A DNA stretch of 64,000 nt from a virus (IMGVR_UViG_3300045988_162923), one strand, 5' to 3'; counted from the first letter of the stretch, positions 398 through 23,323 are shown. Numbers and translations: made by a program. Notes: generated by a model not told the origin, from the sequence alone.

Positions 398-538
398 AAC
401 AATTTATCCTTTATACAACCAGTCCGCCGCAATTGACCACTCTGCCACTCTCCCATATAAATAACTTTAGGTAGTTGAACCACACATCCCGAATGAATAT
501 TTTATTTGCCCATTGGATCATTTGTTCTTCTGGCACAA

Positions 539-679
539 TGGCACTGGTGGCTGGATTTGAACCAACGAATACAGGAGTCTGGCCGTAAATAATAGATTTG
601 AACTATTATCTTCCTATTGGATGTAATTCTTTATACTAATCTACGAAAGTCCTGTGCCTTACCGCTTGGCGACACCAGT
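539..679 (-). tRNA. tRNA gene interrupted by a ~66-nt insertion in the anticodon loop (type I tRNA; mature anticodon unresolved)
   Basis: 5' half ACTGGTG-TC-GCC..GGC-A-CAGGA (acceptor, D arm, anticodon 5' stem) at ~640-679. 3' half TCCTG-TATTC-GTTGG-TTCAAAT-CCAGC-CACCAGT-G-CCA at 539-~575. The halves pair perfectly but are separated by an insert that itself folds as a mini tRNA-like unit (CGTAGAT...AATAG-TTCAAAT-CTATT-ATTTACG-G-CCA). Confidence 0.5.
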
Positions 680-975
680 ATAATTAAACAAGACTCTTAA
701 AAACAAAATTACAAAAAATTCTTTAAAAGAGAATTAAACAGTTATTATGTTAAATAATTTGCTGTTACAGAGTCTTAAATACGAGGGAATCCATATACCA
801 CGTAGGTAATATGAATACGAACAATGCCTAATTGTTTAACCCAGACTACATATTAGGAAAAGGGATGGTTCAGGGGAGGTTATCTGTGTCATCTAGACCT
901 CATTTTTTCATTCTAATACCAATCTACTCAGGGAGATCAATCCTTTTCAATTAAATATCTTTAACAGAACCCTGA

Positions 976-1052
976 TGGTCCGGATGACAGGATTTGAACC
1001 TGCGGCATCTTGAACCCAAATCAAGCGCGATACCAAACTTCGCCACATCCGG
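976..1052 (-). tRNA. tRNA-Pro (anticodon UGG)
   Basis: Minus-strand cloverleaf. Acceptor CCGGATG/CATCCGG, anticodon stem CTTGA/TCAAG with loop TTTGGGT, T-loop TTCAAAT, encoded CCA. Confidence 0.65.
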
Positions 1053-1356
1053 ATATAAACTATTTTAATTAAAATAGTTTAAATATTAAATTAAACTTCA
1101 GGATGCCTAATGAAAAATTCAATAAATAATCCTTCATCCTGCTTATCGTCACAGAAAAGCTCAAGTTCATCACCATGCTGACCAAGCAAAGCTCCAAGAG
1201 CAATATACTGAGAAAGCGCAGATTTCATATTATATCTATCACCCTGCGGACTTACAAGCCACACATTACTATGCGCACGATTAACCGCAGCAATAAAATC
1301 TTCAACCTGAGAAATATTTGTAAGTTTCATTGTAAAATTCCTTTCTATTGGAATAA

Positions 1357-1431
1357 TGGTGCCAAAGGTTGGAATCGAACCAACATGACGGAATTATCAG
1401 TTCCGCATACTAACCGTTATATGACTTCGGC
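1357..1431 (-). tRNA. tRNA-Ile (anticodon GAU)
   Basis: Acceptor GCCGAAG/CTTTGGC (one G-U), anticodon stem CGGAA/TTCCG with loop CTGATAA, T-loop GGTTCGATTCC, CCA encoded. Confidence 0.7.
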
Positions 1432-1480
1432 TTATACAAGACAGATTTTTTAACGGCGTTTTATCCATTTAAACTAATCC

Positions 1481-1530
1481 CCGAAATTGGTCGAGGATAT
1501 AGGATTCGAACCTATAATTTCCGGCTCCCA
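1481..1530 (-). ncRNA. tRNA-like 3' fragment (T-arm + acceptor 3' strand) following the conserved promoter/leader; no matching 5' half found
   Basis: Minus strand ...TATAGG-TTCGAAT-CCTATA-TCCTCGA-C. Lies immediately downstream of a consensus promoter and the conserved leader AAGATAAAGAAAGACA. Confidence 0.3.
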
Positions 1531-1580
1531 AAGCAAATATTATTAATTGCTGATACTGTCTTTCTTTATCTTATATAAAT

Positions 1581-1609
1581 ATTATATCATAAAATTTTTA
1601 TAAAATCAA
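1581..1609 (-). promoter_or_regulatory. Sigma70-type consensus promoter (minus strand): TTGATT-17 nt-TATAAT with TGn extended -10
   Basis: Reverse complement of 1581-1609 reads TTGATTTTATAAAAATTTTATGATATAAT. Member of a >15-copy near-identical promoter family. Confidence 0.6.
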
Positions 1610-1613
1610 AAAT

Positions 1614-1690
1614 TGGCACTTCATTGAGGACTCGAACCTCAAACCCTCTAATTAGAAATCAGATGCTCTCGTCCATTGAGCTAATGAAGT
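1614..1690 (-). tRNA. tRNA-Arg (anticodon UCU)
   Basis: Acceptor ACTTCAT/ATGAAGT, D stem GCTC/GAGC, anticodon stem TCTGA/TTAGA (one G-U) with loop TTTCTAA, T arm TGAGG-TTCGAGT-CCTCA, CCA encoded. Confidence 0.65.
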
Positions 1691-1777
1691 ATATACTAGA
1701 CATAATTAAATGGTACGTCATTTACTTTAAAAAAAATGGCAAAATATTTAATGTTTGCTGTTTATGCCTTTTTAATA

Positions 1778-1925
1778 TGGTAGGGCCGGTTGGATTCGAA
1801 CCAACGATTTGGCAATTTGGCCTAAGACGTTAGATTTGAACTTACATCTTTCTTGCGCACAGACTATTCTACCATTTAAACTAGTCTTAGATAAGTTGCC
1901 GGCCTTACCCCTTGGCCACGACCCC
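1778..1925 (-). tRNA. tRNA gene with a ~85-nt anticodon-loop insertion that itself is a CCA-terminated tRNA-like unit (nested tRNA-like element); mature anticodon unresolved
   Basis: Outer tRNA: GGGGTCG-T-GGCC-AAGGGGTAA-GGCC-G-GCAA(c) ... TTGCC-AAATC-GTTGG-TTCGAAT-CCAAC-CGGCCCT-A-CCA. Inserted unit: CTAAGAC...GTAAG-TTCAAAT-CTAAC-GTCTTAG-G-CCA, a perfect 7-bp acceptor-like helix plus T-arm-like hairpin. Confidence 0.45.
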
Positions 1926-1928
1926 ATA

Positions 1929-2525
1929 TTATTCTAAAATTATTTCCTAAGATAATTGAAATTTTTTACTATTTAAATATTTATAATTAGAAGTTAATGA
2001 ATGACAATTAGGACATAATAATTCTAAATTATCCAATTCATTATGGGTTTTATCTCCATCTTTATGATGAATTTCTAATGGACATTTACCAGTAATAGGA
2101 TTTATTTCTCCCCAACCACATTTCTAACACTTATTATCATATTTCTATAATAAATAAGATCTAATATTATCAGAAATTTTATAAGTATTACCAGTCTTTT
2201 TTAATCCATTTTCTTCACCATTATTAACTTTTTCAATATAAATATTTCTTTCATATTCTCGCTAGCATTTTATAGAACAATATTTATACTATCCTTTTTG
2301 AAGTTCTACTTTACAATTTAAGCAAAATTCTTCTTTAGGTTTTATTCTGTTTAAACATCCACAAGATTTAGTCTATCCTAAAGTTAAATGGCTAGTTTGA
2401 ATTTCTTTTTGATTACCACAATCACACTAACAAAGCCAATAAGTATTACCTTTACGACTTTCTACTTTTTTAAGTGCTACTAACTTTCCAAATCTTTGAC
2501 CTGTTATATCTAATGCTTTTGGCAT
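1929..2525 (-). CDS. HNH homing endonuclease with N-terminal Zn-ribbon DNA-binding repeat (RFGKL...YWLC-Q-CDCGN...SCGC); 6 in-frame TAG codons (recoded)
   Basis: Translation with TAG=Q gives ...LDNLELLCPNCHSLTS plus HHKDGDKTHNELDNLELLCPNCH, a classic HNH motif. The ORF is unreadable in the standard code. It abuts the 5' end of the insertion-containing tRNA at 1925. Confidence 0.7.
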
Positions 2526-2645
2526 ATTAAATTCTCCTTTAATTTAAAAATTTTTCTATTAAATATAAAATTTTAATTTACTGAATTAAAATTTTATGTC
2601 CAAAATTTTCAGCTCCTATTTTTTAAATTATTGGAGTATTTAATT

Positions 2646-2720
2646 GGGGTGACTGGTGGAAATTGAATCCACGACCTTCTGAGCCACAATCAGACGTTCT
2701 ACCAACTGAACTACAGCCAC
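2646..2720 (-). tRNA. tRNA-His (anticodon GUG)
   Basis: GTGGCTGTAGTTCAGTTGGTAGAAC...anticodon loop TTGTGGC...T arm GTGGATTCAATTTCCAC...CAGTCACCCCA. Close to the bacterial tRNA-His consensus. Confidence 0.7.
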
Positions 2721-2721
2721 A

Positions 2722-2798
2722 TGGCATCCCTTGAGAGACTCGAACTCCCAATCTTGTGATTCGTAGTCACACGCTTTATTCCATTAAGCTAAAGGGAT
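2722..2798 (-). tRNA. tRNA-Arg (anticodon ACG)
   Basis: Acceptor ATCCCTT/AAGGGAT, anticodon stem TGTGA/TCACA with loop CTACGAA, T arm GGGAGTTCGAGTCTCTC, CCA encoded. Confidence 0.65.
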
Positions 2799-2803
2799 AA
2801 ATT

Positions 2804-2889
2804 TGGTGCCGGTGGCGGGACTCGAACCCGCACGGTGTTGCCACCGAGGGATTTTAAGTCCCTTGTGTCTGCCATTCCACCACACCGGC
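2804..2889 (-). tRNA. tRNA-Leu (anticodon UAA), type II with long variable arm
   Basis: Acceptor GCCGGTG/CACCGGC, anticodon stem AGGGA/TCCCT with loop CTTAAAA, long variable arm, T-loop GGTTCGAGTCC, CCA encoded. Confidence 0.7.
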
Positions 2890-2930
2890 ATATAAGGGAG
2901 AGATTATTTATCTCTCAACCTTACATATAT

Positions 2931-2959
2931 ATTATATCATAAATTTTTTATAAAATCAA
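2931..2959 (-). promoter_or_regulatory. Consensus promoter TTGATT-17-TATAAT (minus strand), upstream of the His/Arg/Leu tRNA cluster
   Basis: Reverse complement reads TTGATTTTATAAAAAATTTATGATATAAT. Confidence 0.6.
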
Positions 2960-4074
2960 ACAAGATACTTCGTTGTAAAATCAGGAGTATTTTTCTGGAA
3001 AGTAACTTCTTTAATACTCTGAGACTCAGCCTTTTTAATTACAGCCTTGCGCTCATCTTCGTCTTCAATCTGCCAATAATCATCAGGATCAACATAAATC
3101 TTAGTATTTTCACCTTTGATATAAAGCTGTCCATCTCTAAAAGTGATTTTGCTAGGAATAATCGCAAACCGCAATCTATTATCACTCTTAGTATCATATG
3201 CGTCATACCATTCATAAGAAGTCTCAGCCAAATCAATATGACGACCATAAGTTGTATATACTTTACCAGAAGCGAGAGTAACTGTCATATTGAAAGTAAC
3301 AGAACTGCTCTGAGTAATATTAAGATCATTTAGAGTTTCTTCAAGGCTATAACCCTGATTAATTTCAAAAACAATAGCACGCAGATAATCATAAGTCATG
3401 TTAATTGTACGAGAGAAATTAACAATGGAATTAATTACTTCATAATAAGCTGGCAACAACTTATCTTTGAGATATTCTCTAATTTCATTTTCTGTTGGAT
3501 AATTAATCATAAAATGATAATGGAAACGACCGGGACGATTAAGAAGATACTCATTCAACTTACGGGTTTCATTACAAGTAATGACAAAAAGTTTCTTGCC
3601 ATTATCAAGTCCATCGAACAAAGAAAGCATTTCTTCCTGCGGATCACTATGCTCAACTTCGCCAAAAGTCTTTTCAAATTCATCAAAAATAACTACGACT
3701 TCCTGTTCAATAGAGCTAAGAAAATTAGCAATACCCGGAATATATTCATTAACAATGATTACCGGCAATCCATTTTCAATAGCCTTTGCCGCAAGGACGC
3801 GAGCAAATAGAGACTTGCCAATACCTTTCTGACCACTTAAAATAATACCAAAATTACGAGTTGAACACTTATAAGATTTAATTACTTTATTTACTTTTGC
3901 TTCATGATTACCGTAAATCTTTTCTTCATTAATCGACAAATCAGGACGAGAAACCAAGAAAAAGCCAGCCATTTTATTAAAGCTAACTTCAAAAGACATA
4001 GTTGGAAGACGCTTATATGTTTTTACATCTTCACCATAAATTTGAAATCGGCTGCCAGCATTAACAACATTCAT
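2956..4074 (-). CDS. AAA+ ATPase (Walker A GQKGIGKS, Walker B VVVIFDEFEK); standard code
   Basis: 372-aa ORF with no in-frame TAG. P-loop and DExx motifs visible. Embedded between tRNA clusters. Confidence 0.7.
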   Translation of the reverse strand: MNVVNAGSRFQIYGEDVKTYKRLPTMSFEVSFNKMAGFFLVSRPDLSINEEKIYGNHEAKVNKVIKSYKCSTRNFGIILSGQKGIGKSLFARVLAAKAIENGLPVIIVNEYIPGIANFLSSIEQEVVVIFDEFEKTFGEVEHSDPQEEMLSLFDGLDNGKKLFVITCNETRKLNEYLLNRPGRFHYHFMINYPTENEIREYLKDKLLPAYYEVINSIVNFSRTINMTYDYLRAIVFEINQGYSLEETLNDLNITQSSSVTFNMTVTLASGKVYTTYGRHIDLAETSYEWYDAYDTKSDNRLRFAIIPSKITFRDGQLYIKGENTKIYVDPDDYWQIEDEDERKAVIKKAESQSIKEVTFQKNTPDFTTKYLV

Positions 4075-4099
4075 AATTTATATTATCCTTTCTTTCTGT

Positions 4100-4190
4100 T
4101 GGCGCTGGGGGTGGGATTCGAACCCACGGGAGTAATTAGCTCACACAAGTTTTCAAGACTAGGCGCTTATGACCACTTGCGCACCCCAGC
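4100..4190 (-). tRNA. Type II tRNA, probably tRNA-Ser (anticodon UGA) - anticodon stem has one mismatch
   Basis: Acceptor GCTGGGG/CCCCAGC, long variable arm, T-loop GGTTCGAATCC, CCA encoded. Anticodon-loop candidate CTTGAAA. Confidence 0.5.
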
Positions 4191-4367
4191 ATATTCAATT
4201 ACTAGACTCGCAGGACTAGAAAATAAATATTAGAAAAGCAAATAAATCACTTTCCTTATTGAAATACAAAGTTTGTCCAATTACTTACTTTAGATTTTCA
4301 TAATATTTCATCTATCTATTATTAGAAAATATTATTAGTAGTAAATTTTTGCAGTTATCAAGTCTAA

Positions 4368-4459
4368 TGGCGCGGAGGGAGAGATTCGAACTCTCGGACC
4401 GGGTTGCCCCGGTCAAGGGATTAGCAATCCCCCGCACTCGGCCTCTATGCGACCTCCGC
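4368..4459 (-). tRNA. tRNA-Ser (anticodon GCU), type II
   Basis: Acceptor GCGGAGG/CCTCCGC, anticodon stem GGGGA/TCCCT with loop TTGCTAA, long GC-rich variable arm, T-loop GAGTTCGAATCTC, CCA. Confidence 0.7.
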
Positions 4460-4727
4460 ATATATGAAAAATAGAGAGTAAAAAAACGATTTGCTTTACA
4501 GAAAGAGGAGAGAAAACAAAACATGACCACCCATCGAAAGGATGCAAAACAGGAAGTTAAAGAAAAACATAAAACAAACTAGATGTAAAAAACTCTCTCT
4601 ATTGAATAGTTTTTTGTTCCTATATATTCAAATATATAGAAAAGAGTAGTCCTTATTCTTTCAAAGGAATCCCAGCAGCCATACAACATCATTATTCCTA
4701 TATGGATCCTCTCGTGCTGTTCTTCAA

Positions 4728-4804
4728 TGGTGGGCAGAGAAGGTACCGACCCTTCACCCTCTGGTTTTTCAGACCAGTGCTCAGACCTCATAAGCTATCT
4801 GCCC
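4728..4804 (-). tRNA. tRNA-Phe (anticodon GAA) with a non-canonical T-loop (GTCGGTA instead of TTCRANN)
   Basis: Acceptor GGGCAGA/TCTGCCC-A-CCA, D stem GCTT/GAGC (one G-U), anticodon stem CTGGT/ACCAG with loop CTGAAAA, T stem GAAGG/CCTTC. Confidence 0.5.
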
Positions 4805-5150
4805 ATAGAGACAAAAAACAAGACACAATTACTTTCAAATATCATTAGAAATATTTAATGGCTGTTTGTGTCTTTTAATCAATTATAAAGCTATTTAAAT
4901 GTACTTAACCGACTTATTAAAATCACTAGACGTAAAAAGATAATATATAGGACTCGAACCTATTCGTTTTAATTTGCAATTAAAATGTGAAACCAAATCA
5001 CGAAAATTATTCTTAAAGAATATTTGCTGAATACGTCTAACATTATAATGCCTTAGAAGAAACGCAACATCTAAGGACTTACATATTATATTTTATGAAC
5101 AAAATAAGACAATCAAATGAAAAATTGGAGACTGTTCAAATGAATTGAAC

Positions 5151-5224
5151 TGGTTGCGGTCGGCGGAATCGAACCGCGTCTCCGGGTTATGAGCCCAGTA
5201 TCCTACCGTTAGAAGACCACCGCA
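5151..5224 (-). tRNA. tRNA-Met/fMet (anticodon CAU)
   Basis: Anticodon stem CTGGG/CCCGG with loop CTCATAA, T-loop GGTTCGATTCC, CCA encoded. Acceptor has one mismatch. Confidence 0.6.
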
Positions 5225-5225
5225 A

Positions 5226-5302
5226 TGGTGCCTGCCTTTGGATTCGAACCAAATATCTCTAGGGTATGAGTCTAGCGCTTGTTCCTCATAAGCTCCACAG
5301 GC
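5226..5302 (-). tRNA. Second CAU-anticodon tRNA (Met or Ile2-lysidine type); imperfect stems
   Basis: Loop CTCATAC flanked by CTAGA/CCTAG, T arm TTTGGTTCGAATCCAAA, CCA encoded. Adjacent to the other CAU tRNA (typical Met/fMet/Ile2 trio in phages). Confidence 0.5.
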
Positions 5303-5409
5303 ATATTTAATTGTGATGGTTATAAAACTTAATCTAATGCAGGCATCAGACTAATAGAACGCTCCATCAAGTTCTATGCTTCAAAATCGCTTATATCGGG
5401 AAAAGCGAA

Positions 5410-5486
5410 TGGCGATGCTAAGGGGACTCGAACCCCTGACCTTCGGAGAGACAGTCCGACATTCTAGCCAACTGAACTATAGCACC
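5410..5486 (-). tRNA. tRNA-Asp (anticodon GUC)
   Basis: GGTGCTATAGTTCAGTTGGCTAGAAT...stem TCGGA/TCCGA with loop CTGTCTC...T-loop GGGGTTCGAGTCCCC...CCA. Confidence 0.6.
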
Positions 5487-5489
5487 ATA

Positions 5490-6169
5490 TGGTCAGCGCA
5501 AGGGGGATCGAACCCCTACATTCTACCTTTGGTGTTAAGTATAAGATTTGAACTTACATCTTTTCGTACTCTTCTTTTAATCGTTTTATATTTTTACCAT
5601 TTGTAGTATCTAATTGTTGATTGCAATTAGGACAAACCCATCGAAGATTTTCTAATCTATCATCATGATTATGACCATTGACATGATCTAAAATCAAAGT
5701 CAGAGGTTTATCCTACCAAAAAGGTTCTTGCCCGCAAATAGAACATATATAAGGAGTATATTCTCCTTGTAAATAATATTTTCTTAATATTTTCTAATCT
5801 GCGGTAGAATTTTCAATAAAGATATTAGATGGATTTCGTTTTATAGGACGTCTATTTCCTAAAGAAAAATGGTCAGTTGATATATTCAACTAATCTATTC
5901 TTTTTCTAATACGAGTTCCATTATCTCCACTATGAGAACTATATCCTAATTTCTTAGCAACTTCTGCCATAGAACCACTGGATATTACAATTTCTTTAAA
6001 CTATTCATTAGTAAAAGTATCAATTTTTGCTGGCATTTTAAAAATCTCCTATCATTTTTTCTATTATATTTGATTTTTAAGACGCCATCCTTAAAAGAAA
6101 GTGTCCAAAATATTCTTCTTAAACTAACCTAACGAAAGGGTAGTGACTATACCTATTTGTCTATGCGCC
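5490..6169 (-). tRNA. tRNA gene split by a ~610-nt anticodon-loop insertion that contains a complete HNH endonuclease gene plus a tRNA-like mini-helix
   Basis: 5' half CGGCGCA-TA-GAC..GTC-A-CTACC-(ctttcgt...) at 6113-6169. 3' half (..ccaaa)-GGTAG-AATGT-AGGGG-TTCGATC-CCCCT-TGCGCTG-A-CCA at 5490-5530. Anticodon stem CTACC/GGTAG and acceptor CGGCGCA/TGCGCTG pair. The loop begins with the same CTTTCGT as the 539-679 insertion-tRNA. Confidence 0.45.
5554..6036 (-). CDS. HNH homing endonuclease (LDHVNGHNHDDRLENLRWVCPNCN), 4 in-frame TAG codons (recoded); located inside the tRNA anticodon-loop insertion
   Basis: MPAKIDTFTNE-Q-FKEIV... with HNH motif H-x-NGHNHDD...N...CPNC. Continuous only with TAG as sense. 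Confidence 0.65.
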
Positions 6170-6238
6170 GTTAAAAATGTGGGACTTTTGGCGGGAGGCT
6201 CCCACGGGACCTCAGCCTTTTGGTGGTGTAAAAGGCAT

Positions 6239-6314
6239 TGGTGACCCCAGACGGATTCGAACCGCCATCTTAACCTTGAGAGGGTTACCACCTAGCCAAT
6301 TAGTAGATGGGGCC
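6239..6314 (-). tRNA. tRNA-Glu (anticodon CUC) - tentative
   Basis: Acceptor GGCCCCA/TGGGGTC, anticodon stem TAACC/GGTTA with loop CTCTCAA, T-loop GCGGTTCGAATCCGTC, CCA. Confidence 0.55.
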
Positions 6315-6317
6315 AAA

Positions 6318-6500
6318 TTAATTATCAGAAACTAAATTTCTTGACTTTTCTTTTTCTTGTGCGCGTTCATATTTCATTCCCTTACCTTTTTTCGCAGGAG
6401 TTCGAGAACCGCGCCGTTTAAACATCATATATTCTTGAAGTTCATCAGGGCTTTTCTTAAAGATGCGTCTATCAATTTTCTTCTTGGTATTCATTTCCAT
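6318..6500 (-). CDS. Small basic protein (60 aa, K/R-rich)
   Basis: ORF from the track. Composition plausible for a nucleic-acid-binding peptide. No homology claim. Confidence 0.3.
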   Translation of the reverse strand: MEMNTKKKIDRRIFKKSPDELQEYMMFKRRGSRTPAKKGKGMKYERAQEKEKSRNLVSDN

Positions 6501-6618
6501 ATTCCTCCTTCATAAGTCTACACCATTCAAGGAACTGCCATTCAAATTCATCGGATTGGATTTGAGTATCAAAGTCATTGAACATCTTTTTAAATTCCTT
6601 TCTTAACTTTGTAAAAAT

Positions 6619-6648
6619 ATTATATCATATTTTTTTAAAAATGTCAAA
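6619..6648 (-). promoter_or_regulatory. Consensus promoter TTGACA-17-TATAAT (minus strand)
   Basis: Reverse complement reads TTGACATTTTTAAAAAAATATGATATAAT. Confidence 0.6.
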
Positions 6649-6673
6649 AAGAATTTAATATGCTAAATCCTTT

Positions 6674-6757
6674 TGGTGCTCAGAGTGGGACTTGAACCCA
6701 CACGTCTTTCGACAATCGGGTTTGAGCCGATCGCGTCTGCCATTCCGCCACCAGAGC
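6674..6757 (-). tRNA. tRNA-Leu (anticodon CAA), type II
   Basis: Acceptor GCTCTGG/TCTGAGC (one mismatch), anticodon stem ATCGG/CCGAT with loop CTCAAAC, long variable arm, T-loop GGGTTCAAGTCCC, CCA. Confidence 0.65.
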
Positions 6758-7087
6758 ATATCACATTTCGGCGGTTCCGGACCCGCCAAGGCAGTATCAC
6801 CTTAAATAACTTTTATGTCCCCTCTTAAAAAGTCATTCACAAAAAAGCTGGCTTTATGGTTAAGCCTTACCCTCTTTTCCATTTTTCCTTTTGCGTAAAG
6901 CAGTCCAAACAATCAAAAGAGTAAGCATAAAAGATAGCTCCAAGTGATTTATAGACTAACTTGATAAGTCTCGCAGCATCACATATTTTCCAAGTAACTA
7001 ATAAGGTTTAGCTGCCATTTTTCATAAATATAATCTATAATAATAATCCTATATTACATTATGGGCGATTATCATTCCCGTTCTAAT

Positions 7088-7165
7088 TACCATTACCTCA
7101 TTTGGATTCGAACCAAAAACTCCACCCTCTACTGGGCGGCGTGTTTCCATTACACCATAAGGCTT
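7088..7165 (-). pseudogene. tRNA-like sequence with intact T-arm but unpairable acceptor/anticodon stems and no U33 (probable tRNA pseudogene or non-canonical tRNA)
   Basis: T arm TTTGG-TTCGAAT-CCAAA present. Anticodon region CAGTAGA/AGTAGAG ambiguous. No CCA. Confidence 0.25.
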
Positions 7166-7230
7166 ATTAGCAACTTATTTACATAACGATGGAGTTGCCA
7201 ACCACCGGATAGTACAAAGATATCGGCTTA

Positions 7231-7306
7231 TGGTACCGGCGAAAGGACTCGAACCTTCAGATTAATGATCCTAAATCATTCGCCTATGCCATTCGGCTAC
7301 ACCGGT
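7231..7306 (-). tRNA. Type I tRNA with anticodon UAG (would decode CUA, a Leu codon, despite lacking the long variable arm of bacterial tRNA-Leu)
   Basis: Acceptor ACCGGTG/CGCCGGT (one G-U), anticodon stem AATGA/TCATT with loop TTTAGGA, 5-nt variable region AATCT, T arm GAAGG-TTCGAGT-CCTTC, CCA encoded. Confidence 0.55.
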
Positions 7307-7527
7307 ATATGGTGGAAAGAAGTATTTCACCTTTTATAGCGCGCTTCTCCCCGTTCCCGCGCTACCCCTCTCCCAATTAGCTTGATTATGAGAGGATTTT
7401 ACTATGAAGTTCATCATAGTTACCCGATTTCCCTTTGCCTCAGTTTATTTTTAATTGGTCTATTGCCAACGGCAGGTGACTAATCTACCTAGTTCAAACC
7501 GGAAACCCCATGTATAAGACCAATAAT

Positions 7528-7602
7528 GGCGGATACAGAAGGGCTCGAACCTTCGACCCACGGTTTAACAGACCGTTGCTCTGCCAACTGAGCTATGCAT
7601 CC
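7528..7602 (-). tRNA. tRNA-Asn (anticodon GUU)
   Basis: GGATGCATAGCTCAGTTGGCAGAGC...stem ACGGT/ACCGT with loop CTGTTAA...GGTTCGAGCCC...CCA. Confidence 0.7.
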
Positions 7603-7900
7603 ATATTAAATCGCCCTTTTCTTTAACGGTACTTCACAAGTAGGCTAACTCCCGACTTCCTCTTCAAGTTCCAACCAGAATTACTGATGCTCACTGTGTC
7701 TATTTTTCCTCCCATACAGTTTGGATGAATTTTATTTTAGATGACAAAAATAAAATTTAGTTTTAATTGGATTTCACCAAGGAGAGCTTTTTTGTTATTC
7801 GTTCTTTTCATCACTAAGTATGAAGCATCCATCACTCTCGCACAACGTCATCAGCAAGTTTATTGACTCCATCTGAACTGTCATAAAGAAAATTTTCATT
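7603..7900 (-). ncRNA. ~300-nt non-coding region between a consensus promoter (7921-7949) and tRNA-Asn; candidate structured ncRNA or long tRNA leader
   Basis: No ORF in either code. Contains a long A/T hairpin (AAATTTTATTTT...AAAATAAAATT). Transcribed from the promoter on its right. Confidence 0.25.
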
Positions 7901-7920
7901 TTCTTTCATTTGATATAAAT

Positions 7921-7949
7921 ATTATATCATATTTTTTATAAAAAATCAA
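7921..7949 (-). promoter_or_regulatory. Consensus promoter TTGATT-17-TATAAT (minus strand)
   Basis: Reverse complement reads TTGATTTTTTATAAAAAATATGATATAAT. Confidence 0.6.
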
Positions 7950-7989
7950 AAAAGATTTTTTAACTAAACAAAACAAGACAACTTTTTTA

Positions 7990-8065
7990 ATTACGCTGCT
8001 CTACCACTTGAGCTATCGTTTGTAAATTAATACGCACGAGTTGGACTCGAACCAACAACACACGG
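7990..8065 (-). ncRNA. Two juxtaposed tRNA fragments in non-cloverleaf order: a 3' half (T-arm + acceptor 3' strand, 8040-8065) followed by a 5' half-like piece (acceptor/D-arm AAACGATAGCTCAAGTGGTAGAGC, 7990-8030)
   Basis: T arm GTTGG-TTCGAGT-CCAAC-TCGTGCG on the minus strand directly after promoter and leader. D-arm consensus GCTCAAGTGGTAGAGC follows it. The two pieces cannot pair as one tRNA. Confidence 0.3.
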
Positions 8066-8126
8066 ATTACCAATCAATTTAAAAAATTAAAATTGCTGTA
8101 ATTGTCTTTCTTTATCTTACATATAT

Positions 8127-8155
8127 ATTATATCATAAATTTTTTATAAAATCAA
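8127..8155 (-). promoter_or_regulatory. Consensus promoter TTGATT-17-TATAAT (minus strand) followed by conserved leader AAGATAAAGAAAGACA
   Basis: Reverse complement reads TTGATTTTATAAAAAATTTATGATATAAT. Identical to the 2931 and 8388 copies. Confidence 0.6.
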
Positions 8156-8171
8156 AAAATAACTTTTTGAC

Positions 8172-8245
8172 TGGCAGGGGCGCTCCGACTCGAACGGAGA
8201 GTCCCGGTTTTGGAGACCGGTGGTTTACCATTAACCGACACCCCT
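8172..8245 (-). tRNA. tRNA-Trp (anticodon CCA)
   Basis: Acceptor AGGGGTG/CGCCCCT (one G-U), anticodon stem CCGGT/ACCGG with loop CTCCAAA, T-loop CCGTTCGAGTCGG, CCA encoded. Confidence 0.7.
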
Positions 8246-8271
8246 ATAAAATCAAGACTTATAAATTATTT

Positions 8272-8343
8272 TTCCAGAGCGTGGATTTGAACCACGGTCT
8301 TCAGGATTTTACTCTGATAGGCTATCCTCTACCCCACTTCGGA
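8272..8343 (-). tRNA. tRNA, anticodon unresolved (loop AGTAAAATC; 4-bp anticodon stem)
   Basis: Acceptor TCCGAAG/CTCTGGA (one mismatch), T arm CGTGG-TTCAAAT-CCACG. No encoded CCA. Confidence 0.45.
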
Positions 8344-8387
8344 TGACTATTGCTGTAAAAGTCTTTCTTTCTTTATCTTACATATAT

Positions 8388-8416
8388 ATTATATCATTTA
8401 TTTTTTATAAAATCAA
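8388..8416 (-). promoter_or_regulatory. Consensus promoter TTGATT-17-TATAAT (minus strand)
   Basis: Reverse complement reads TTGATTTTATAAAAAATAAATGATATAAT. Conserved leader follows. Confidence 0.6.
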
Positions 8417-8475
8417 AAATAATCTTATAGACTAGAATTGACCAGTATTAAATAGTTTTATTTAATAATAAATAA

Positions 8476-9435
8476 TCAATATCTATCATAGTCTGTATAA
8501 GGAATTCTTAATAAAGGAATATTATTTTTTTTACAATATTTATCCTTCATTTTATCATGTTCAATAACTTTATCTGTATGCCATATACTTGATTGATTAA
8601 AATGCTATTTACCATCATATTCAATTAATTTTAAAACTTTTCCGTTATGATCTAAAATAGCAAAATCAAATCGTAAATAATTTTTATCTTTTAAATCATT
8701 AAAAGTATATTCCTAAATAAAAGAAATATTATTATTTATTAAAATTTTTTTTATTAAATTTTCTCCTAATGAATTCCCTATGCATCCACAGGACTAAGTA
8801 AGTCCCTATAATAGGCTTGATTGCCGAATACTTTTAATATTTCCACAATCACATTGACATACCCAATATGCCTTGTCTTTTTGTTCTTCATCTTTATGTA
8901 GAGCAATTAATTTACCGAATCTTCGTCCAACTAAATTTAATCTTTTAGATTGAATTCCTAAAGGCTAAATATTTTCTATCATATTTATTTTTGCTTTTTC
9001 TTTCTATAAACATCCACAAGACTGAGTATGTTCTGATTTTAAAGATGAAGTAGTAACATTTACAATATTTCCACAGTCACATTTACATTCCCAATAAGAA
9101 GCAGTATTATTTAATTCTTTTCGCTTTAAAATAGTATATTCTTTATTAAAAGATAATACTGTTAATTTACCAAATTTTTGTCCCGATAAATCATCATAAA
9201 AGCTCGGATTATCTTTACGATTTCGATTAATATTTCCTTTTAAACGATTCTCTTTTCCTAAACAACCGCAAGATAAAATTTTTCCATTACGCAAATCAGC
9301 ACCACGAATATTTTTTATTATCCCACAATCACACTAGCATTTCCATAAAAGCTTATTAGAATTATCATGTCCAGCTTCTTCTAAAACTATTAATCTACCA
9401 AAACGCTAATCTATTAAATTTATTTTTTTACCCAA
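8476..9435 (-). CDS. Homing-endonuclease-like protein: three Zn-ribbon repeats (RFGKL..W.C.CDCGN..SCGC) + C-terminal PD-(D/E)XK / DUF559-like nuclease domain (RFDFAI..IEYDGK-Q-HF); TAG-recoded; start approximate (TTG at 9435)
   Basis: ORF-track fragment 9004..9294 is the middle repeat. Full reading frame continuous with TAG=Q. TAG sits at the Q of the DGKQH motif, which is CAA in the paralogue at 22523-23323. Confidence 0.6.
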
Positions 9436-9808: not shown

Positions 9809-10546
9809 TTAACTTTCTCCTTTTTTTACAAGATATTTATCACTAAATATCATTTCTATTGTTATATTATTTTTTTCCCAATAAGGAATTCGAACAAGAG
9901 GAATATTATGTTCAAAAGCAAAATAATTTTTTATTAAATCAGATTGCTAAGTCCGTTCAAAAGATTCTCTTCCCCATTTAGCTGGCTTAAAATGCTATTC
10001 ACCATCAAATTCAACCAGTCTAATTAAATTATTATCTTTATCAAAAATAGCAAAATCATATCTTTTATTTTTTAATTCAGAAAATTTAAATTCTTTAGCA
10101 AAAGAAATATTATTTTCTTCTAAAATATCTATAATTTTCTATTCCCCTAAAGATATTCCATTTTTACATCCACAGCTGCTAGTATTTCCACTTCTTAATT
10201 CTGCCCCAGCAACAGATACGATATTTCCGCAATCACATCTACAAATCCATTTTACTTTTCCATTAATACTTTTTGATACTGTATCTTTATATAAAACAGT
10301 TAATTTACCATATTTATTACCAGTCTCATCTTTTCCAATTGCTTCAAAAACTTTTTCATTTCGTAAGCATCCACAACTTTTTGTTGCTCCATTTTTTAAA
10401 CTTAAAGCAGCAATACTTTTTTGATTCCCGCAACTACACTAACAAATCCAATATGTTCTATGATGCTTCTTAGAGGCTTCTTCATCTTTTTTTAAAACAG
10501 TTAATCGTGAAAAAACTTTTCCAATTAAATCTTCAGATTTTGGCAT
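9809..10546 (-). CDS. Homing-endonuclease-like protein: two Zn-ribbon repeats + DUF559-like PD-(D/E)XK domain ([21 protein letters not shown]); TAG-recoded
   Basis: [18 protein letters not shown]...YWIC-Q-CSCGN...SCGC. RBS AAGGAAGAATTTATATG. 4 in-frame TAGs. Confidence 0.6.
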
Positions 10547-10637: not shown

Positions 10638-12083
10638 TTAATTTGTCCCTTCGCCATTATTAGCCTCCATTATTTTCTTCTCTAATTTATTACATTCATC
10701 AAAAACTAATTGCTTTAAATCAAATGGTTCTCCTCGTTCCATATCTTCTGAACACCAAGGACATAAATATTTATGATATTCCTCATTATATTTCATAGAA
10801 CTGCGATAATATCCATTACCGCATCTATCACAAGTCATACATTCATTTTTAAAGCAATCACTACAAACTATTTCGTCTGAATCAACATAATAAGCTTCAT
10901 CTAATAATATTCTGCGACCACAACAGTCACAATATCCAAAAATATCATTTTCACTATCACCATATGCTAATTCACAACTATCACATCGCATAAAATCACT
11001 ATGCTCAATTAATGATTTACCACAATTTAAACAATTAATTTCTCCGCCAATATCCCAATGCCATTCATCAGCATCACTAGCATAAAATCCTCTCGATCGG
11101 ACTGCTATATAAGGTCGATAGCATGAAGAATTTATCAAATCATCAAATTGTAAAGAATTTTTAGCATCTGCTACTTTATCTCTAATTGGATAAATTTTCC
11201 CACCAATTGCAATATAATCAGTATCTAAAGGATATTGCTTACCAGAAATTTTATCAGTATAGCCAGTAATATTACTATCTTCCCATTTATGAAACTCTAC
11301 TCCCATATTATTTAAACACATAGAAATAGTCTCTAAGGCGCTTAAAGTAGAAAGAGGATATTGCCGACCCGCAAAAATTGCTCTCCAATTCTTTTCAAAG
11401 AAAATTAATACTCTCCATTTTTTAGAATTCCAAAGCACATCTTCAGGAAAATTAGGTAATCTTACCCCATCAGCACCTTTTAAATAACAAATTACAGTTG
11501 ATTTATCAACCATATATGAAAGATTTCCTGCGCGATACTCACCGTCAAGCGCATGGCAAGACCGCCAATTATAAGTATTCTCACTTGAACTTAAAAAATC
11601 AAGTGGATGAACTGATATACATAACTTACCCTCAATCTTATCCTCTTGGATAACACGGCTTGCGCTATTTTGAATATCATTCAATAAGTCTTTATCAGAA
11701 ATAAAATACTTAAATGCTTTAACTAGTTTCATGCCTATTGGAATAATTTTACCATCAGGTAATTTATATTCTTCAATAACTTGATTAGTAAAAAATCCAT
11801 CTCTATTAATTTCAATAAAATCAATTAAATCATAATTGCTATATAAGCAATCAATTGTATCCAAAAAATTATTTAAATTCTTTTGTTTTTCTCTTTTATC
11901 AAGCTTTAAATGTAATACATACGGATATTCATAAATTAGATTACCACCAAATAATTCAATAAAATCTCTTTTAGCGTCTAAAAATCTATTAAATAATTCT
12001 TCTGTTTTAGGATTTTCAATTCCTTGTGAATAACGAATTACTTCATCGAATTGTTTTTTAATTTCTCTGATGTCGAATGACAT
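10638..12083 (-). CDS. Cys-rich protein, paralogue A (conserved N-domain + C-terminal multi-CxxC zinc-ribbon cluster); standard code
   Basis: 481-aa ORF. Shares ...C-SxHP-DF/Y...W.SC....E.R.G......WNxKKWR with 14938..16566. C-terminus CLNCG..CDSC..CDCCG..CSDC..CDRCG..CPWC. Confidence 0.65.
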   Translation of the reverse strand: MSFDIREIKKQFDEVIRYSQGIENPKTEELFNRFLDAKRDFIELFGGNLIYEYPYVLHLKLDKREKQKNLNNFLDTIDCLYSNYDLIDFIEINRDGFFTNQVIEEYKLPDGKIIPIGMKLVKAFKYFISDKDLLNDIQNSASRVIQEDKIEGKLCISVHPLDFLSSSENTYNWRSCHALDGEYRAGNLSYMVDKSTVICYLKGADGVRLPNFPEDVLWNSKKWRVLIFFEKNWRAIFAGRQYPLSTLSALETISMCLNNMGVEFHKWEDSNITGYTDKISGKQYPLDTDYIAIGGKIYPIRDKVADAKNSLQFDDLINSSCYRPYIAVRSRGFYASDADEWHWDIGGEINCLNCGKSLIEHSDFMRCDSCELAYGDSENDIFGYCDCCGRRILLDEAYYVDSDEIVCSDCFKNECMTCDRCGNGYYRSSMKYNEEYHKYLCPWCSEDMERGEPFDLKQLVFDECNKLEKKIMEANNGEGTN

Positions 12084-14639: not shown

Positions 14640-14668
14640 ATTATATCTTATTTTTTATTAAAAATCAA
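14640..14668 (-). promoter_or_regulatory. Consensus promoter TTGATT-17-TATAAT (minus strand), tandem with 14543
   Basis: Reverse complement reads TTGATTTTTAATAAAAAATAAGATATAAT, preceded by the conserved leader. Confidence 0.55.
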
Positions 14669-14850
14669 ATAACTTTTTTGAAATCGACAAATTGTTCATA
14701 ATGTTCCTTTAAAGTATCTGCTGCTTTTTCAGTCATTTCTTCTTCTGGAATAGTTACTAATCCATCTTTTAATTGTTGAAAAGTAGTCCCTATTGCTCTA
14801 TAAGATTCAATAGCTTCTTGTAAAGCTTTATTTAAACTATCCCATAACAT
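14665..14850 (-). CDS. Small hypothetical protein (61 aa)
   Basis: ORF from the track. Confidence 0.35.
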   Translation of the reverse strand: MLWDSLNKALQEAIESYRAIGTTFQQLKDGLVTIPEEEMTEKAADTLKEHYEQFVDFKKVI

Positions 14851-14937
14851 ATCTTCTAGAGGATTAGTTATTTTTGCTTCTTGCTAATAATCAGAGGCTC
14901 TATATACTAAAGTAGATCCACGCGCCTAAGACTAAGA

Positions 14938-16566
14938 CTAATCTTTCAAACTGTCAAGGAACCATTGCCGGCCTTCTTTACTATTAATGGAAAAAATATC
15001 ACGTAGTCTATCAGCAGCTTCACTATCCGATTCAATCAAAGTTTCAAAATCTACTCGATAATGAACTCCAAAAGATGACTGGATAGGATCACTAATAATT
15101 AATCCAGTTTCTTCATAATCACTCTTACAATTGTAACAAAGATAAGCAGAACGCCAAGTTAATTTATTATCTTTATAAAGACGAATTTCATTCAAATACT
15201 CATTATAAAAAGCGTCGCCACAGTCTTCACACGTGCCAGCTTTTTCAGTATAACAGTCATAGCACAAACAAGTATCATCGTCAATCCAATAGTAATCATC
15301 ATTATGAATAATATCACCACAACATTTACATCTTATGGCATTAGAGCAATTATCACAAAGCAACATACAAGTATCACTAATATCACAAATCTCTTCGCCA
15401 CAATTCATACATTCACTATAGCCAGAATAATCAATATCAATTTCGTGCGGTGCTTCGATGCCAATAAAACATTTTTGATTTTTGGAATAAACATCATTAT
15501 ACATCTTATCACAATAGATGTTAATTGAATAGGGCTTATCATTCAATTCCAAACAAAAATTATTATAATCAGCATCACGGAAGTTATTATAATAAGTACA
15601 AAGATTACTATATTGCCAACCAAGATTAGTAGCCGCAAGATCTCTAATCCATTTCATACAAAGACCATTTAATTCATCATTATGCCAAGGATACTGACGA
15701 ATATCACTAATCAAATCTTTGGTGATAATATAAAGCTGACGCCATTTCTTATTATTCCAATGTGAAAGCTTCTCACCCCAGCCAAATTCCATATCTTCTT
15801 TTGCGCGAAGATAAGCAACAAGGACGCAAGGAGAGTTCATCATTTCAACAGTGCCAATACGATAATCGCCTTCATTACGCCAATTCATACAACTGTCCCA
15901 ATCGCAGTCATTATCACTCATGGTCACATAATCCATAGGATGAATTGACAAACAAAGTGTACCTTTAATAGTATCTTGATTTAAAAATTGAGAATGGGCA
16001 ATTCTAAATTCTTCATATTTTGCTTCTGACAGCTCAAAGAATTTTGTCAACTTACCAAGTAATTTACTGATTTTGGCACCTTTATTGACTAACATTGTTT
16101 GTCCATCATCACTACGAGTAATAGTAAAAGTATCACCCGTATAAATATTATTATGAAGGCTTTCAAAAGTAGTTAGCTCTCTCAAAGCCATAATGTCTTC
16201 AAGCCGATTTACTTTATAAAGAGGATCATGATAGCTTTCTGGCGTCTCAAGATTTCTTTTATCAGCAGTAAAGTCTTGATATTCACGAATAAACTTATAA
16301 CCAATCCGCCAATAACCAAGACAATCTTCAAAATCAGATCTAGACTGGCGCTCAGAACGTTTAAAAGTTACATCTTTGGAAATAGTAAATTTTTCACCAA
16401 GCATCTTCCAAAGAGTTACTTTCTCCTTATCCCAAAACCGTAAAATATGATCGACATTTTCTACATCAAGATCAGGATCTTTATCGTCACTCATACCGCC
16501 ATACATATTGATCCAATTACAAAATATTGATTTATCTTCATTACTTAAATAATTGCATAAAGCCAT
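14938..16566 (-). CDS. Cys-rich protein, paralogue B (N-domain homologous to 10638..12083 + C-terminal multi-CxxC cluster); standard code
   Basis: 542 aa. Shared GTLCLSIHPMDY...WNNKKWRQLYIITKD block. C-terminus CMNCGEEIC..CDNC..CKCCG..CYDC..CEDCG..CYNC. Confidence 0.65.
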   Translation of the reverse strand: MALCNYLSNEDKSIFCNWINMYGGMSDDKDPDLDVENVDHILRFWDKEKVTLWKMLGEKFTISKDVTFKRSERQSRSDFEDCLGYWRIGYKFIREYQDFTADKRNLETPESYHDPLYKVNRLEDIMALRELTTFESLHNNIYTGDTFTITRSDDGQTMLVNKGAKISKLLGKLTKFFELSEAKYEEFRIAHSQFLNQDTIKGTLCLSIHPMDYVTMSDNDCDWDSCMNWRNEGDYRIGTVEMMNSPCVLVAYLRAKEDMEFGWGEKLSHWNNKKWRQLYIITKDLISDIRQYPWHNDELNGLCMKWIRDLAATNLGWQYSNLCTYYNNFRDADYNNFCLELNDKPYSINIYCDKMYNDVYSKNQKCFIGIEAPHEIDIDYSGYSECMNCGEEICDISDTCMLLCDNCSNAIRCKCCGDIIHNDDYYWIDDDTCLCYDCYTEKAGTCEDCGDAFYNEYLNEIRLYKDNKLTWRSAYLCYNCKSDYEETGLIISDPIQSSFGVHYRVDFETLIESDSEAADRLRDIFSINSKEGRQWFLDSLKD

Positions 16567-22522: not shown

Positions 22523-23323
22523 TTATACAATATTATACATTGAACTTATTATTTCATTATAATTTAAATGAGACAAAGATGTATATGGAATACGCTTTAA
22601 AATAATATTATTCTTTTTACAATATTCATTTTTTAAATTATCTCTAAATTGAATATCTTCTAATGTGTCTTTAGTATGGCTCCAAGTATTTGTATCTGGT
22701 CCAGTATAATGTTGTTTACCATCAAATTCAATTAAATATTGTAGATTATCGTCTTTATCAAAAATAGCAAAATCAAAGCGTAATCTATAATTAGTTAATG
22801 GATTTCGTAAATCTGGAAAAGTATATTCAGTTTTATAATTTATATTATAATTATTTAATATATCTTTTATAATTTCTTCTCCTCGAGAAGAAATACACCC
22901 ACAAGAGATAATGGCTCCAGAATTTAAATCATTTCCTCGAATAGATTTAATATTTCCACAATCACACTAACAAATATACCAACTTTCATTTTTATCTCTA
23001 CTAGCCTGTTTTCTTAATCCTTCATACTTTATAACTACTAATTTACCAAATCTATCGCCAATCTAAATAGTTCTTTGATTTTCATTATACTTTTTCATTC
23101 GAGTGCTTGCTTTAATTCTATTCTAACATCCACATGATGGGTCTTTTGCTTTTGTAAAGTATGGCATTGCCATTGGTTTAATAGTCCCACAATCACATTT
23201 ACATACCCACATAGTTTGAGTTTTATTATTTACAGTACGATACAAAGCAGTTAAATGACCAAATCTCTAATTAGTTATATCTTTAGCTTGCCCTAAAGGT
23301 ATTTTTTTATATATTTTTTCCAT
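22523..23323 (-). CDS. Homing-endonuclease-like protein: two Zn-ribbon repeats + DUF559-like PD-(D/E)XK domain ([22 protein letters not shown]); TAG-recoded (4 TAG)
   Basis: MEKIYKKIPLGQAKDITN-Q-RFGHLTAL...WVCKCDCG...SCGC-Q-NRIK...YIC-Q-CDCGN. The DGKQHY here uses CAA for Q where paralogues use TAG. Inserted among standard-code early genes. Confidence 0.6.

Follow-up and report, generated by a model that had tools for sequence, protein, structure and literature searches.

The tRNA array of a phage genome could carry introns that are themselves shaped like tRNAs, as our analysis of IMGVR_UViG_3300045988_162923 indicates. In this stretch of 64,000 nucleotides (hereafter the window), three tRNA genes, for Gln(UUG), Ile(UAU) and Glu(UUC), are each interrupted by an insert that forms a tRNA-like unit. 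Our analysis suggests that the inserts are mobile, tRNA-mimicking introns, cut at the 5' end by RNase P and at the 3' end by an RNase Z-type enzyme, with a ligase sealing the exons; we give this reading a probability of roughly 0.45. It is very likely that each insert is an intron that must be removed, and RNase P probably acts at the 5' site. The full model, in which core-less tRNA-mimic introns are excised by RNase P and an RNase Z-type enzyme, joined by a 3'-OH/5'-P ligase and spread by HNH homing, is plausible though tentative, and the 3' half of the reaction, an RNase Z-type cut followed by ligation, is the more doubtful part.

The three genes belong to a dense minus-strand tRNA array, which makes up the first 8.4 kb of the window. 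ARAGORN with default settings reports 19 tRNAs, none of them at the three loci. With introns allowed it recognizes all three as interrupted tRNAs, but it places the junctions arbitrarily and wrongly assigns the genes to Glu, Trp and SeC. Rfam RF00005 covers positions 542-679 with 48.8 bits and a large internal insertion. Together with the anatomy of the exons, these results uphold the original prediction, made from the sequence alone, that tRNA genes here carry large insertions in the anticodon loop. The genes occupy 679-539 (Gln), 1925-1778 (Ile) and 6170-5490 (Glu), all on the minus strand, and their inserts, all within the anticodon, measure 66, 73 and 604 nt; the predicted lengths were right for the first (~66 nt) and too long for the second and third (~85 and ~610 nt). 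At each locus the 5' half holds a complete acceptor strand, D-arm and 5' anticodon stem, the 3' half holds the 3' anticodon stem, variable loop, T-arm, acceptor and an encoded CCA, and the two halves pair with each other. The coordinates below draw on L017, which comprises 13 kb from a 201-kb IMG/VR phage contig and is collinear with the window at 91-98% identity, and on R1, a covariance model built from an alignment (A1) of 13 distinct tRNA-like units.

646-679, minus strand: 5' exon of tRNA-Gln(UUG), with acceptor 679-673, D-arm 670-656, anticodon stem 654-650 and loop CUUU at 649-646
580-645, minus strand: putative intron of 66 nt between anticodon nt 35/36, found by model R1 and absent from L017
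539-579, minus strand: 3' exon of tRNA-Gln(UUG), with loop GAC, anticodon stem 576-572, T-arm 566-550, acceptor 549-543 and GCCA
1891-1925, minus strand: 5' exon of tRNA-Ile(UAU), ending in loop CUUAU
1818-1890, minus strand: putative intron of 73 nt between nt 36/37, found by model R1 and with homologous introns elsewhere
1778-1817, minus strand: 3' exon of tRNA-Ile(UAU), with loop AA, stem, T-arm, acceptor and ACCA
6134-6170, minus strand: 5' exon of tRNA-Glu(UUC), ending in loop CUUUC
5530-6133, minus strand: putative intron of 604 nt between nt 36/37, absent from L017 and matched by model R1 in its 3' part
5490-5529, minus strand: 3' exon of tRNA-Glu(UUC), with loop AA

The boundaries of the inserts are defined by the relative L017. 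Window positions 7579 to 6134 align with L017 398-1879 and 5529 to 2804 with L017 1880-4607; likewise, 1609 to 646 align with L017 7530-8493 and 579 to 420 with L017 8494-8653. L017 is without the Gln and Glu inserts, the breakpoints falling at 646/645 and 580/579 for the former and at 6134/6133 and 5530/5529 for the latter. Because the alignment runs contiguously in L017, 645-580 and 6133-5530 are clean insertions, and given the neighbouring bases neither junction can be placed otherwise at these two loci. Both inserts begin precisely at base 1 of the nested acceptor helix and stop at the A of the nested CCA, so that each comprises exactly the tRNA mimic between its mature 5' and 3' termini. 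The same ends of the Gln and Ile inserts (580-645 and 1818-1890) were found by model R1, which was built from the nested units only. L017 carries the Ile intron, which shows higher conservation (93%) than its flanking exons.

Removal of the inserts in silico yields canonical cloverleaves in ARAGORN, with the anticodon loops CUUUGAC for Gln(UUG), CUUAUAA for Ile(UAU) and CUUUCAA for Glu(UUC). The spliced host genes have a full cloverleaf, a 7-nt loop, U33 and a purine at position 37. The predicted exon-exon joins are CAGGACUUU to GACUCCUG (CUUU-GAC), GGCAACUUAU to AAUUGCC (CUUAU-AA) and CUACCCUUUC to AAGGUAG (CUUUC-AA). The spliced Gln product is 96% identical to the uninterrupted gene of L017, the spliced Glu product is 98.7% identical to the uninterrupted gene at L017 1843-1919, and an uninterrupted tRNA-Ile(UAU) with the same anticodon arm, CCGGCGA-CUUAUAA-UCGCCAGAUG, occurs in other phages of the dataset. 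These intron-less alleles fix the anticodons as UUG, UAU and UUC, and the candidates CCA, UCA and UUA that had been considered are dropped. CTTTCGT, once taken for a shared start of the inserts, is in fact a composite in which the exon loop (CTTT or CTTTC) runs into the first bases of the intron. An artefact of assembly or a chimera is practically negligible as an explanation, since all three genes are 100% identical across four independent assemblies from different samples, one of them a human-gut contig of 200 kb that probably represents the source genome, and the same nested architecture was found in many other IMG/VR phage contigs by pattern scans and the covariance model.

Every insert is a single tRNA-like unit, composed of a 7-bp acceptor stem, U8-A9, a D-arm, a 5-bp T-stem with the loop UUCAAAU, a discriminator and CCA. 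The inner acceptor helices are CGUAGAU/AUUUACG, CUAAGAC/GUCUUAG and GUUAGGU/ACUUAAC in the Gln, Ile and Glu inserts, respectively. The acceptor helix, the T-arm loop TTCAAAT and the encoded CCA had been described correctly beforehand; U8-A9 and the D-arm come in addition. The units agree with canonical tRNAs in the lengths of the acceptor and T-stems, in the 7-nt T-loop, in U8 and in the D-arm. They depart from them in the anticodon arm: the normal 17-nt arm, with its 5-bp stem and 7-nt loop carrying an anticodon, is missing, and in its place there is a hairpin of 3-6 bp with a 4-9-nt loop, nothing, or an open reading frame (ORF). A four-nucleotide linker, AGAU, connects the short hairpin to the T-stem. 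ARAGORN calls no tRNA on the isolated inserts. The nested units are laid out as follows.

580-645, minus strand: nested unit of the Gln insert, with acceptor 645-639 / 590-584, D-arm 636-623, hairpin 621-612 (3-bp stem, tetraloop), T-arm 607-591 and tail GCCA 583-580
1818-1890, minus strand: nested unit of the Ile insert, with acceptor 1890-1884 / 1828-1822, D-arm 1881-1866, hairpin 1863-1851 (3-bp stem, loop GUGCGCA), T-arm 1845-1829 and GCCA 1821-1818
5530-6133, minus strand: nested unit of the Glu insert, with acceptor 6133-6127 / 5540-5534, D-arm region from 6124, T-arm 5557-5541 and ACCA 5533-5530; an HNH ORF takes the hairpin position, and the non-ORF part is only about 120 nt

The hairpin loop of the Ile-type introns (window 1851-1863, minus strand, L017, L090 and L160) always holds a 6-nt palindrome whose sequence depends on the lineage (UGCGCA, AGCGCU or AGUACU). 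It could serve as a kissing-loop dimer, or as a protein or DNA site.

Thermodynamic folding gives weak z-scores for the inserts, as expected of AT-rich tRNA-like RNAs, and we therefore relied on covariation. Across the 13 aligned units 96.8% of the cells in the acceptor and T helices are paired, and changes on both sides are observed in 11 of the 12 pairs (7/7 in the acceptor, 4/5 in the T-stem). None of 500 shuffles reaches this level, and shifted partners pair only in 39-51% of the cases. The hairpin sequence varies and yet stays paired (UCC/GGA, UUUC/GAAA, UCCU/AGGA, UCUAUU/AAUAGA, UCUG/CAGA). Homologues of the Ile intron with compensatory changes in the acceptor are present in L017, L056, L158, L090 and L160. 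Model R1 scores 75 bits (E 9e-14) at 1818-1890 and 69.4 bits (E 1.5e-12) at 580-645, and it matches the 3' part only of the Glu insert (5530-5597, 34.7 bits). The smallest member of the family has 58 nt and no hairpin, while ORFs of about 480 nt and more are tolerated at the hairpin position. Conservation is limited to tRNA-type features.

The inserts belong to none of the known intron classes that we considered. With Rfam, no group I, group II or small-ribozyme match was found in 400-9000 at E<=1, the small self-cleaving ribozymes including HDV-like/theta, hammerhead, twister and others, and no group I match was found at the gathering threshold either. Group I introns are known from the anticodon loops of bacterial and phage tRNA genes, some with homing endonucleases (reviewed in PMC3984707; examples from Patescibacteria in PMC13011429). 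Our inserts resemble them in the anticodon-loop site, the presence/absence alleles, the endonuclease gene in a peripheral loop of some members and the U that often precedes the 5' splice site. Unlike them, they have no P3-P9 core (RF00028), their last base is A instead of G, and the features they conserve are those of a tRNA; when free of an ORF they measure 58-73 nt, as against roughly 200 nt or more in group I. A group II intron is rejected by the lack of an Rfam match for Domain V, by the far too short length and by an ORF that encodes HNH rather than a reverse transcriptase. As to the bulge-helix-bulge (BHB) introns of archaeal and eukaryal tRNAs, the inserts are like them in probably depending on proteins, in lying in or near the anticodon and in requiring an RNA ligase; they differ in having no BHB, in not lying at the canonical 37/38 and in residing in a bacteriophage. 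The motif is impossible here because the first intron bases would need a partner of 4 nt and only 2-3 exon bases precede the anticodon stem: CGUA of the Gln intron cannot pair with GAC, and the Ile and Glu loci offer only AA. We know of no EndA-type enzyme in a bacteriophage setting. The earlier view that the inserts are neither group I, group II nor BHB introns is confirmed by the missing Rfam matches, the lengths and the last base A.

It could be asked whether the inserts are instead a new small self-splicing ribozyme that resembles a tRNA by chance. Phage introns with homing endonucleases are normally self-splicing, and both splice sites are found here where the inner acceptor helix ends, only a few nucleotides apart, as would suit a ribozyme. 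We nevertheless consider this very unlikely, because it is only the tRNA-type positions that are conserved, members go down to 58 nt, no known ribozyme or intron family was matched in the Rfam search above, and neither a terminal G nor guide-like complementarity to the differing exons is seen when the sequence is read directly. Two further candidates were tried on the array. The inserts give no match to the YrlA or Y RNA-like family RF02553. The spacer 6171-6238 (minus strand, 69-nt), located between tRNA-Glu(CUC) and the interrupted tRNA-Glu(UUC) and almost identical in L017, was rejected as a theta/HDV-like ribozyme: it has no Rfam match and no fit by eye to drz-Mtgn-1, and consists of two plain hairpins.

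Family-wide, at least eight tRNAs serve as hosts, namely Lys UUU, Gln UUG, Glu UUC, Asn GUU, Asp GUC, Ile UAU, Pro UGG and Gly UCC, with Lys(UUU) interrupted at two different positions. The insertion points are at nt 34/35, 35/36 or 36/37. The 5' junction is the inner +1 in every case, and removal restores the 7-nt loop, U33 and purine 37 in every case. On the 3' side the junction comes after NCCA, after a variant of 4 nt (ACAA, ACCG, CCCT) or, in members without CCA, 1-2 nt past the acceptor. A second subfamily (L125, L139, L143, L145) has mostly longer HNH genes, other T-loops and no CCA. The true cases of the first pattern scan (AAGATNNNNGTTCAAATCT) were picked by eye, as most of its hits were ordinary tRNA-Trp genes and coding sequence; a scan for the D-arm motif of the HNH-bearing subfamily returned almost only noise and recovered two loci, both already known. 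In a scan of 185,579 species genomes with one pattern we found ordinary tRNAs only and no nested unit in cellular genomes. The list of host tRNAs overlaps what we take to be the usual targets of anticodon nucleases, and with the insertion sites lying within the anticodon itself, a link of these introns to defence or counter-defence is possible.

The conserved features are only those recognized by the enzymes that process tRNA ends. As read from the sequence, all three units would offer RNase P a coaxial stack of 7+5 bp, an NCCA tail (GCCA, GCCA and ACCA) and U, U and C, respectively, at position -1. Bacterial RNase P prefers U before its cut, which is the base found in most cases here, and an encoded CCA favours the bacterial enzyme. 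We propose that the unit, which also has a variable region, folds into an L-shaped tRNA-like RNA, the anticodon arm of which would be reduced to a dispensable hairpin able to host an HNH gene. RNase P would recognize the nested acceptor, T-arm and CCA and cut at +1, leaving the 5' exon with a 3'-OH. An RNase Z-type enzyme would cut directly after CCA, or after the discriminator in the relatives without CCA, and leave a 5'-phosphate on the 3' exon. The exon halves would be held by the outer anticodon and acceptor stems until a phage- or host-encoded 3'-OH/5'-P RNA ligase seals the nick into a 7-nt anticodon loop. The products would be tRNA-Gln(UUG), tRNA-Ile(UAU) and tRNA-Glu(UUC) along with a free tRNA-like RNA. 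An ATP-dependent RNA ligase would be needed because RNase P and an RNase Z-type enzyme leave 3'-OH and 5'-phosphate ends. That the nested unit might be processed by RNase P and RNase Z had been suggested before, and this fits the coincidence of the insertion ends with the inner +1 and the CCA end. RNase Z of Thermotoga cuts just after an encoded CCA and others cut after the discriminator (PMC7479834), and the two tail classes in the family match these two cutting behaviours. Gut phages with theta ribozymes beside their tRNA genes, many of them recoded, are ~140-fold enriched for RNA ligases of the DRB0094 family, the function of which is only proposed in that work (PMC10879173).

The use of a tRNA mimic to mark cut sites has precedents, and so has the assembly of a tRNA from pieces. 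mascRNA from MALAT1, mitochondrial tRNA punctuation and external guide sequences are all cases of tRNA mimics cut by RNase P or RNase Z, and, as proposed for our inserts, the cut sites of end processing are marked by a mimic that has no normal anticodon arm. In those systems the flanks are not rejoined, whereas here the flanks are halves of another tRNA that must be ligated. Split and permuted tRNA genes are known from Nanoarchaeum and Cyanidioschyzon, and our loci share with them a tRNA made from separately encoded, mutually pairing halves. Here, both halves are on one transcript unit with a defined mobile element between them, and intron-less alleles exist. We regard a split-tRNA arrangement as the less likely explanation.

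The Glu insert carries a gene that may have driven its spread.

5554-6036, minus strand: intron-encoded HNH homing endonuclease of 160 aa inside the Glu insert, with four in-frame TAG

This ORF (6036-5554) is intact if its four TAG codons are read as sense, and its stop codon TAA falls within the inner T-stem. It matches PHROG 10822 (HNH endonuclease) with E 1.8e-40, as the original prediction of a TAG-recoded HNH ORF would have it, scores 19.3 bits against Pfam HNH, just below the cut-off of 21.4, and contains the HNH motif (DHVNGHNHDDRLENLRWVCPNCN). We located 27 homologues in or beside phage tRNA genes. The endonuclease gene is found within the Glu insert only, the Gln and Ile inserts having no ORF; related HNH genes are contained in the Glu insert and in members of the second subfamily. 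For Gln and Glu, the comparison with L017 shows an allele that has the insert and one that lacks it at identical sites, and the intron-less tRNA-Ile(UAU) genes are found elsewhere. The presence/absence alleles, the HNH genes and the higher conservation of the Ile intron relative to its exons suggest that the tRNA-like unit may spread at the DNA level by homing. L126 (1450-2263) has a homologous HNH gene directly in the anticodon loop of tRNA-Gln(UUG), between UUUUG and AA, with no tRNA-like RNA around it and a stop codon completed by the first two exon bases. HNH homologues also interrupt the tRNA-Gln genes of L123, L136 and L138 (around 1390-2050), where the insert is a different one starting with AAAAAUUUUUGUGCC; that of L138 also has a second Gln-type anticodon arm.

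A free-standing HNH gene of 198 aa with seven in-frame TAG is located at 2525-1929 (minus strand), between tRNA-His and the interrupted tRNA-Ile. The segment 2644-1930 that holds it is missing from L017, and the array therefore contains a second kind of mobile insertion. SegB of T4 is a free-standing homing endonuclease in a phage tRNA cluster (PMC2330249), comparable to this gene in that an endonuclease drives mobility in tRNA arrays; SegB is intergenic, whereas the HNH element of the Glu locus interrupts a tRNA. The early region of the window is crowded with selfish nuclease genes. Three ORFs (8476-9435, 9809-10546 and 22523-23323, minus strand) have repeated W-x-C-x-C-x-C-G...S-C-G-C modules and look like homing endonucleases.

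Several observations weigh against tRNA-mimic introns cut by RNase P and RNase Z. Splicing itself we infer from the intact exons, and the cleavage enzymes and the ligase are inferred as well. No RNA ligase or RtcB was found by Pfam on nine window proteins, a KxDG motif scan, the reachable flanks and an inspection by eye of the large ORFs of relatives, the window representing roughly one third of a ~200-kb genome. Between the inner acceptor and the 3' junction there are 1, 2 or 4 nt, and some of the 4-nt tails are not CCA (the variants given above), so one fixed ruler does not explain all cases. The HNH gene of L126 has no nested fold around it, a hint that the fold may be dispensable for removal, if removal takes place there at all. 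The terminase most resembles its counterparts in Firmicutes phages (Enterococcus VRE9_4/EF1, Geobacillus E3), which points to Firmicutes hosts, whereas the Bacillus-type RNase Z avoids CCA. Finally, free-standing copies of the tRNA-like unit exist outside tRNA genes, in L152 (5772-5839), L069 (797-869), L042 (6382-6464), L106 (9426-9508 and 9580-9662) and L049 (4324-4405), with an odd or reduced anticodon arm and usually CCA. Given the 3' tails, the Firmicutes terminase and L126, we keep three rivals open, the ribozyme discussed above and the two that follow.

The free-standing units (L152, L069, L042, L106) raise the possibility that the insert is not an intron, but a tRNA-like small-RNA gene, with or without a homing endonuclease, that landed in a tRNA gene; the enzymes of tRNA processing would release it, and the host tRNA would be lost or survive as halves only. 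An insert running exactly from +1 to CCA would also result if a mature RNA, or an entire gene unit, had been inserted. We consider this unlikely in view of what the host genes have kept. The exons retain complementary acceptor, D, anticodon and T stems across lineages that differ in exon sequence. Apart from the three interrupted genes, the window contains no tRNA for Gln, Ile(UAU) or Glu(UUC), and GAA is the top codon among those counted (60.5 per 1000 codons). Moreover, the eight or more host tRNAs are all hit within three anticodon positions and none is hit elsewhere in the tRNA.

An alternative hypothesis could be that the exons rather than the insert define the splice sites. An endonuclease of the phage or its host would read the outer tRNA body and cut the enlarged anticodon loop to leave a 2',3'-cyclic phosphate and a 5'-OH, an RtcB-type ligase would join the ends, and the nested tRNA shape would serve other ends, such as stability, a by-product RNA or homing. 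The lone HNH ORF in the anticodon loop of L126 suits this hypothesis, as does the variable 3' tail length, which a ruler based on the intron accommodates poorly. The phage also has two YrlA-like Y RNAs, and the YrlA-type RNAs of Salmonella are encoded in the rsr-yrlBA-rtcBA operon, beside RtcB. A ruler based on the outer tRNA fails too, however, because the insertion point varies relative to it (34/35, 35/36, 36/37). The match of the boundaries to the inner +1 and the CCA end would be left unexplained, RNase P should cut the nested unit regardless, and no EndA-like or RtcB gene is seen in the window proteins scanned or in the reachable flanks. We judge protein splicing of this kind improbable, and tRNA-mimic introns processed by RNase P and an RNase Z-type enzyme remain the reading we prefer.

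TAG is a sense codon in this phage, as 66 in-frame TAG (8.1 per 1000) and no in-frame TGA occur in 23 long ORFs; the G+C content of the window is 34%. The insertions had been thought relevant to this recoding. Since none of UUG, UAU and UUC reads a stop codon, these tRNAs are not suppressors and the link is not supported; the only tie to recoding is that the HNH ORF of the Glu insert is itself TAG-recoded. No tRNA(CUA) suppressor is visible in the window, although TAG is sense. An odd tRNA at 7093-7164 (minus strand), which ARAGORN reports as '???', has a four-base anticodon gtag in an 8-nt loop (CAGUAGAG) and no encoded CCA; the L017 region aligned to it is 93.6% identical.

The two YrlA-like genes are located at 1440-1560 and 7975-8100 (minus strand) and have a permuted tRNA-like module; their scores against RF02553, 26.9 and 38.2 bits, are sub-threshold. 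Both are preceded by the promoter-like motif TTGATTTTATAAAAAATTTATGATATAAT. The same motif, which is AT-rich (TTGAT..., then TATAAT), precedes several tRNA and small-RNA blocks at 1570-1612, 2925-2966, 6598-6656, 7905-7945 and 8120-8150 (minus strand), and several copies are present in L017, too. Outside the array, the paralogous proteins encoded at 10638-12083 (481 aa) and 14665-16566 (633 aa) on the minus strand share an invariant SVHPLD...SEN..NWRSCH..DGEYR.GN.SYM.D and C-terminal zinc fingers; more than 2000 proteins belong to this family, for which there is neither a Pfam domain nor, even with a confident model (pLDDT 86), a fold match. Immediately to the left of the window (L281 13678-21096), the source contig encodes a PDDEXK_5 protein and two Mtd_N proteins, which point to targets of a diversity-generating retroelement, while a relative (L283 6431-12000) has DUF2828/VWA, PP2C and protein-kinase genes there instead.

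Within the literature covered we regard the element as undescribed. We found no description of tRNA-shaped introns in tRNA genes in the full-text literature, a coverage that leaves out most subscription journals, so that a prior description is possible; the papers on recoding and on theta ribozymes do not mention tRNA introns. To our knowledge, the tRNA introns of bacteria and phages are only self-splicing group I introns, and protein-spliced ones are regarded as archaeal or eukaryotic. Standard tRNA finders miss or mis-assign the interrupted genes, and therefore the tRNA repertoires of phages and the predictions of their genetic code are biased. If splicing is confirmed, the inserts would represent a new class of intron. 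RNase P, RNase Z and a ligase could then serve as a splicing system of the bacterial world, and a selfish element would be made harmless through borrowed housekeeping enzymes. This would also give a role to the RNA ligases enriched in tRNA-rich gut phages with theta ribozymes, and the supply of key tRNAs could be coupled to the infection programme.

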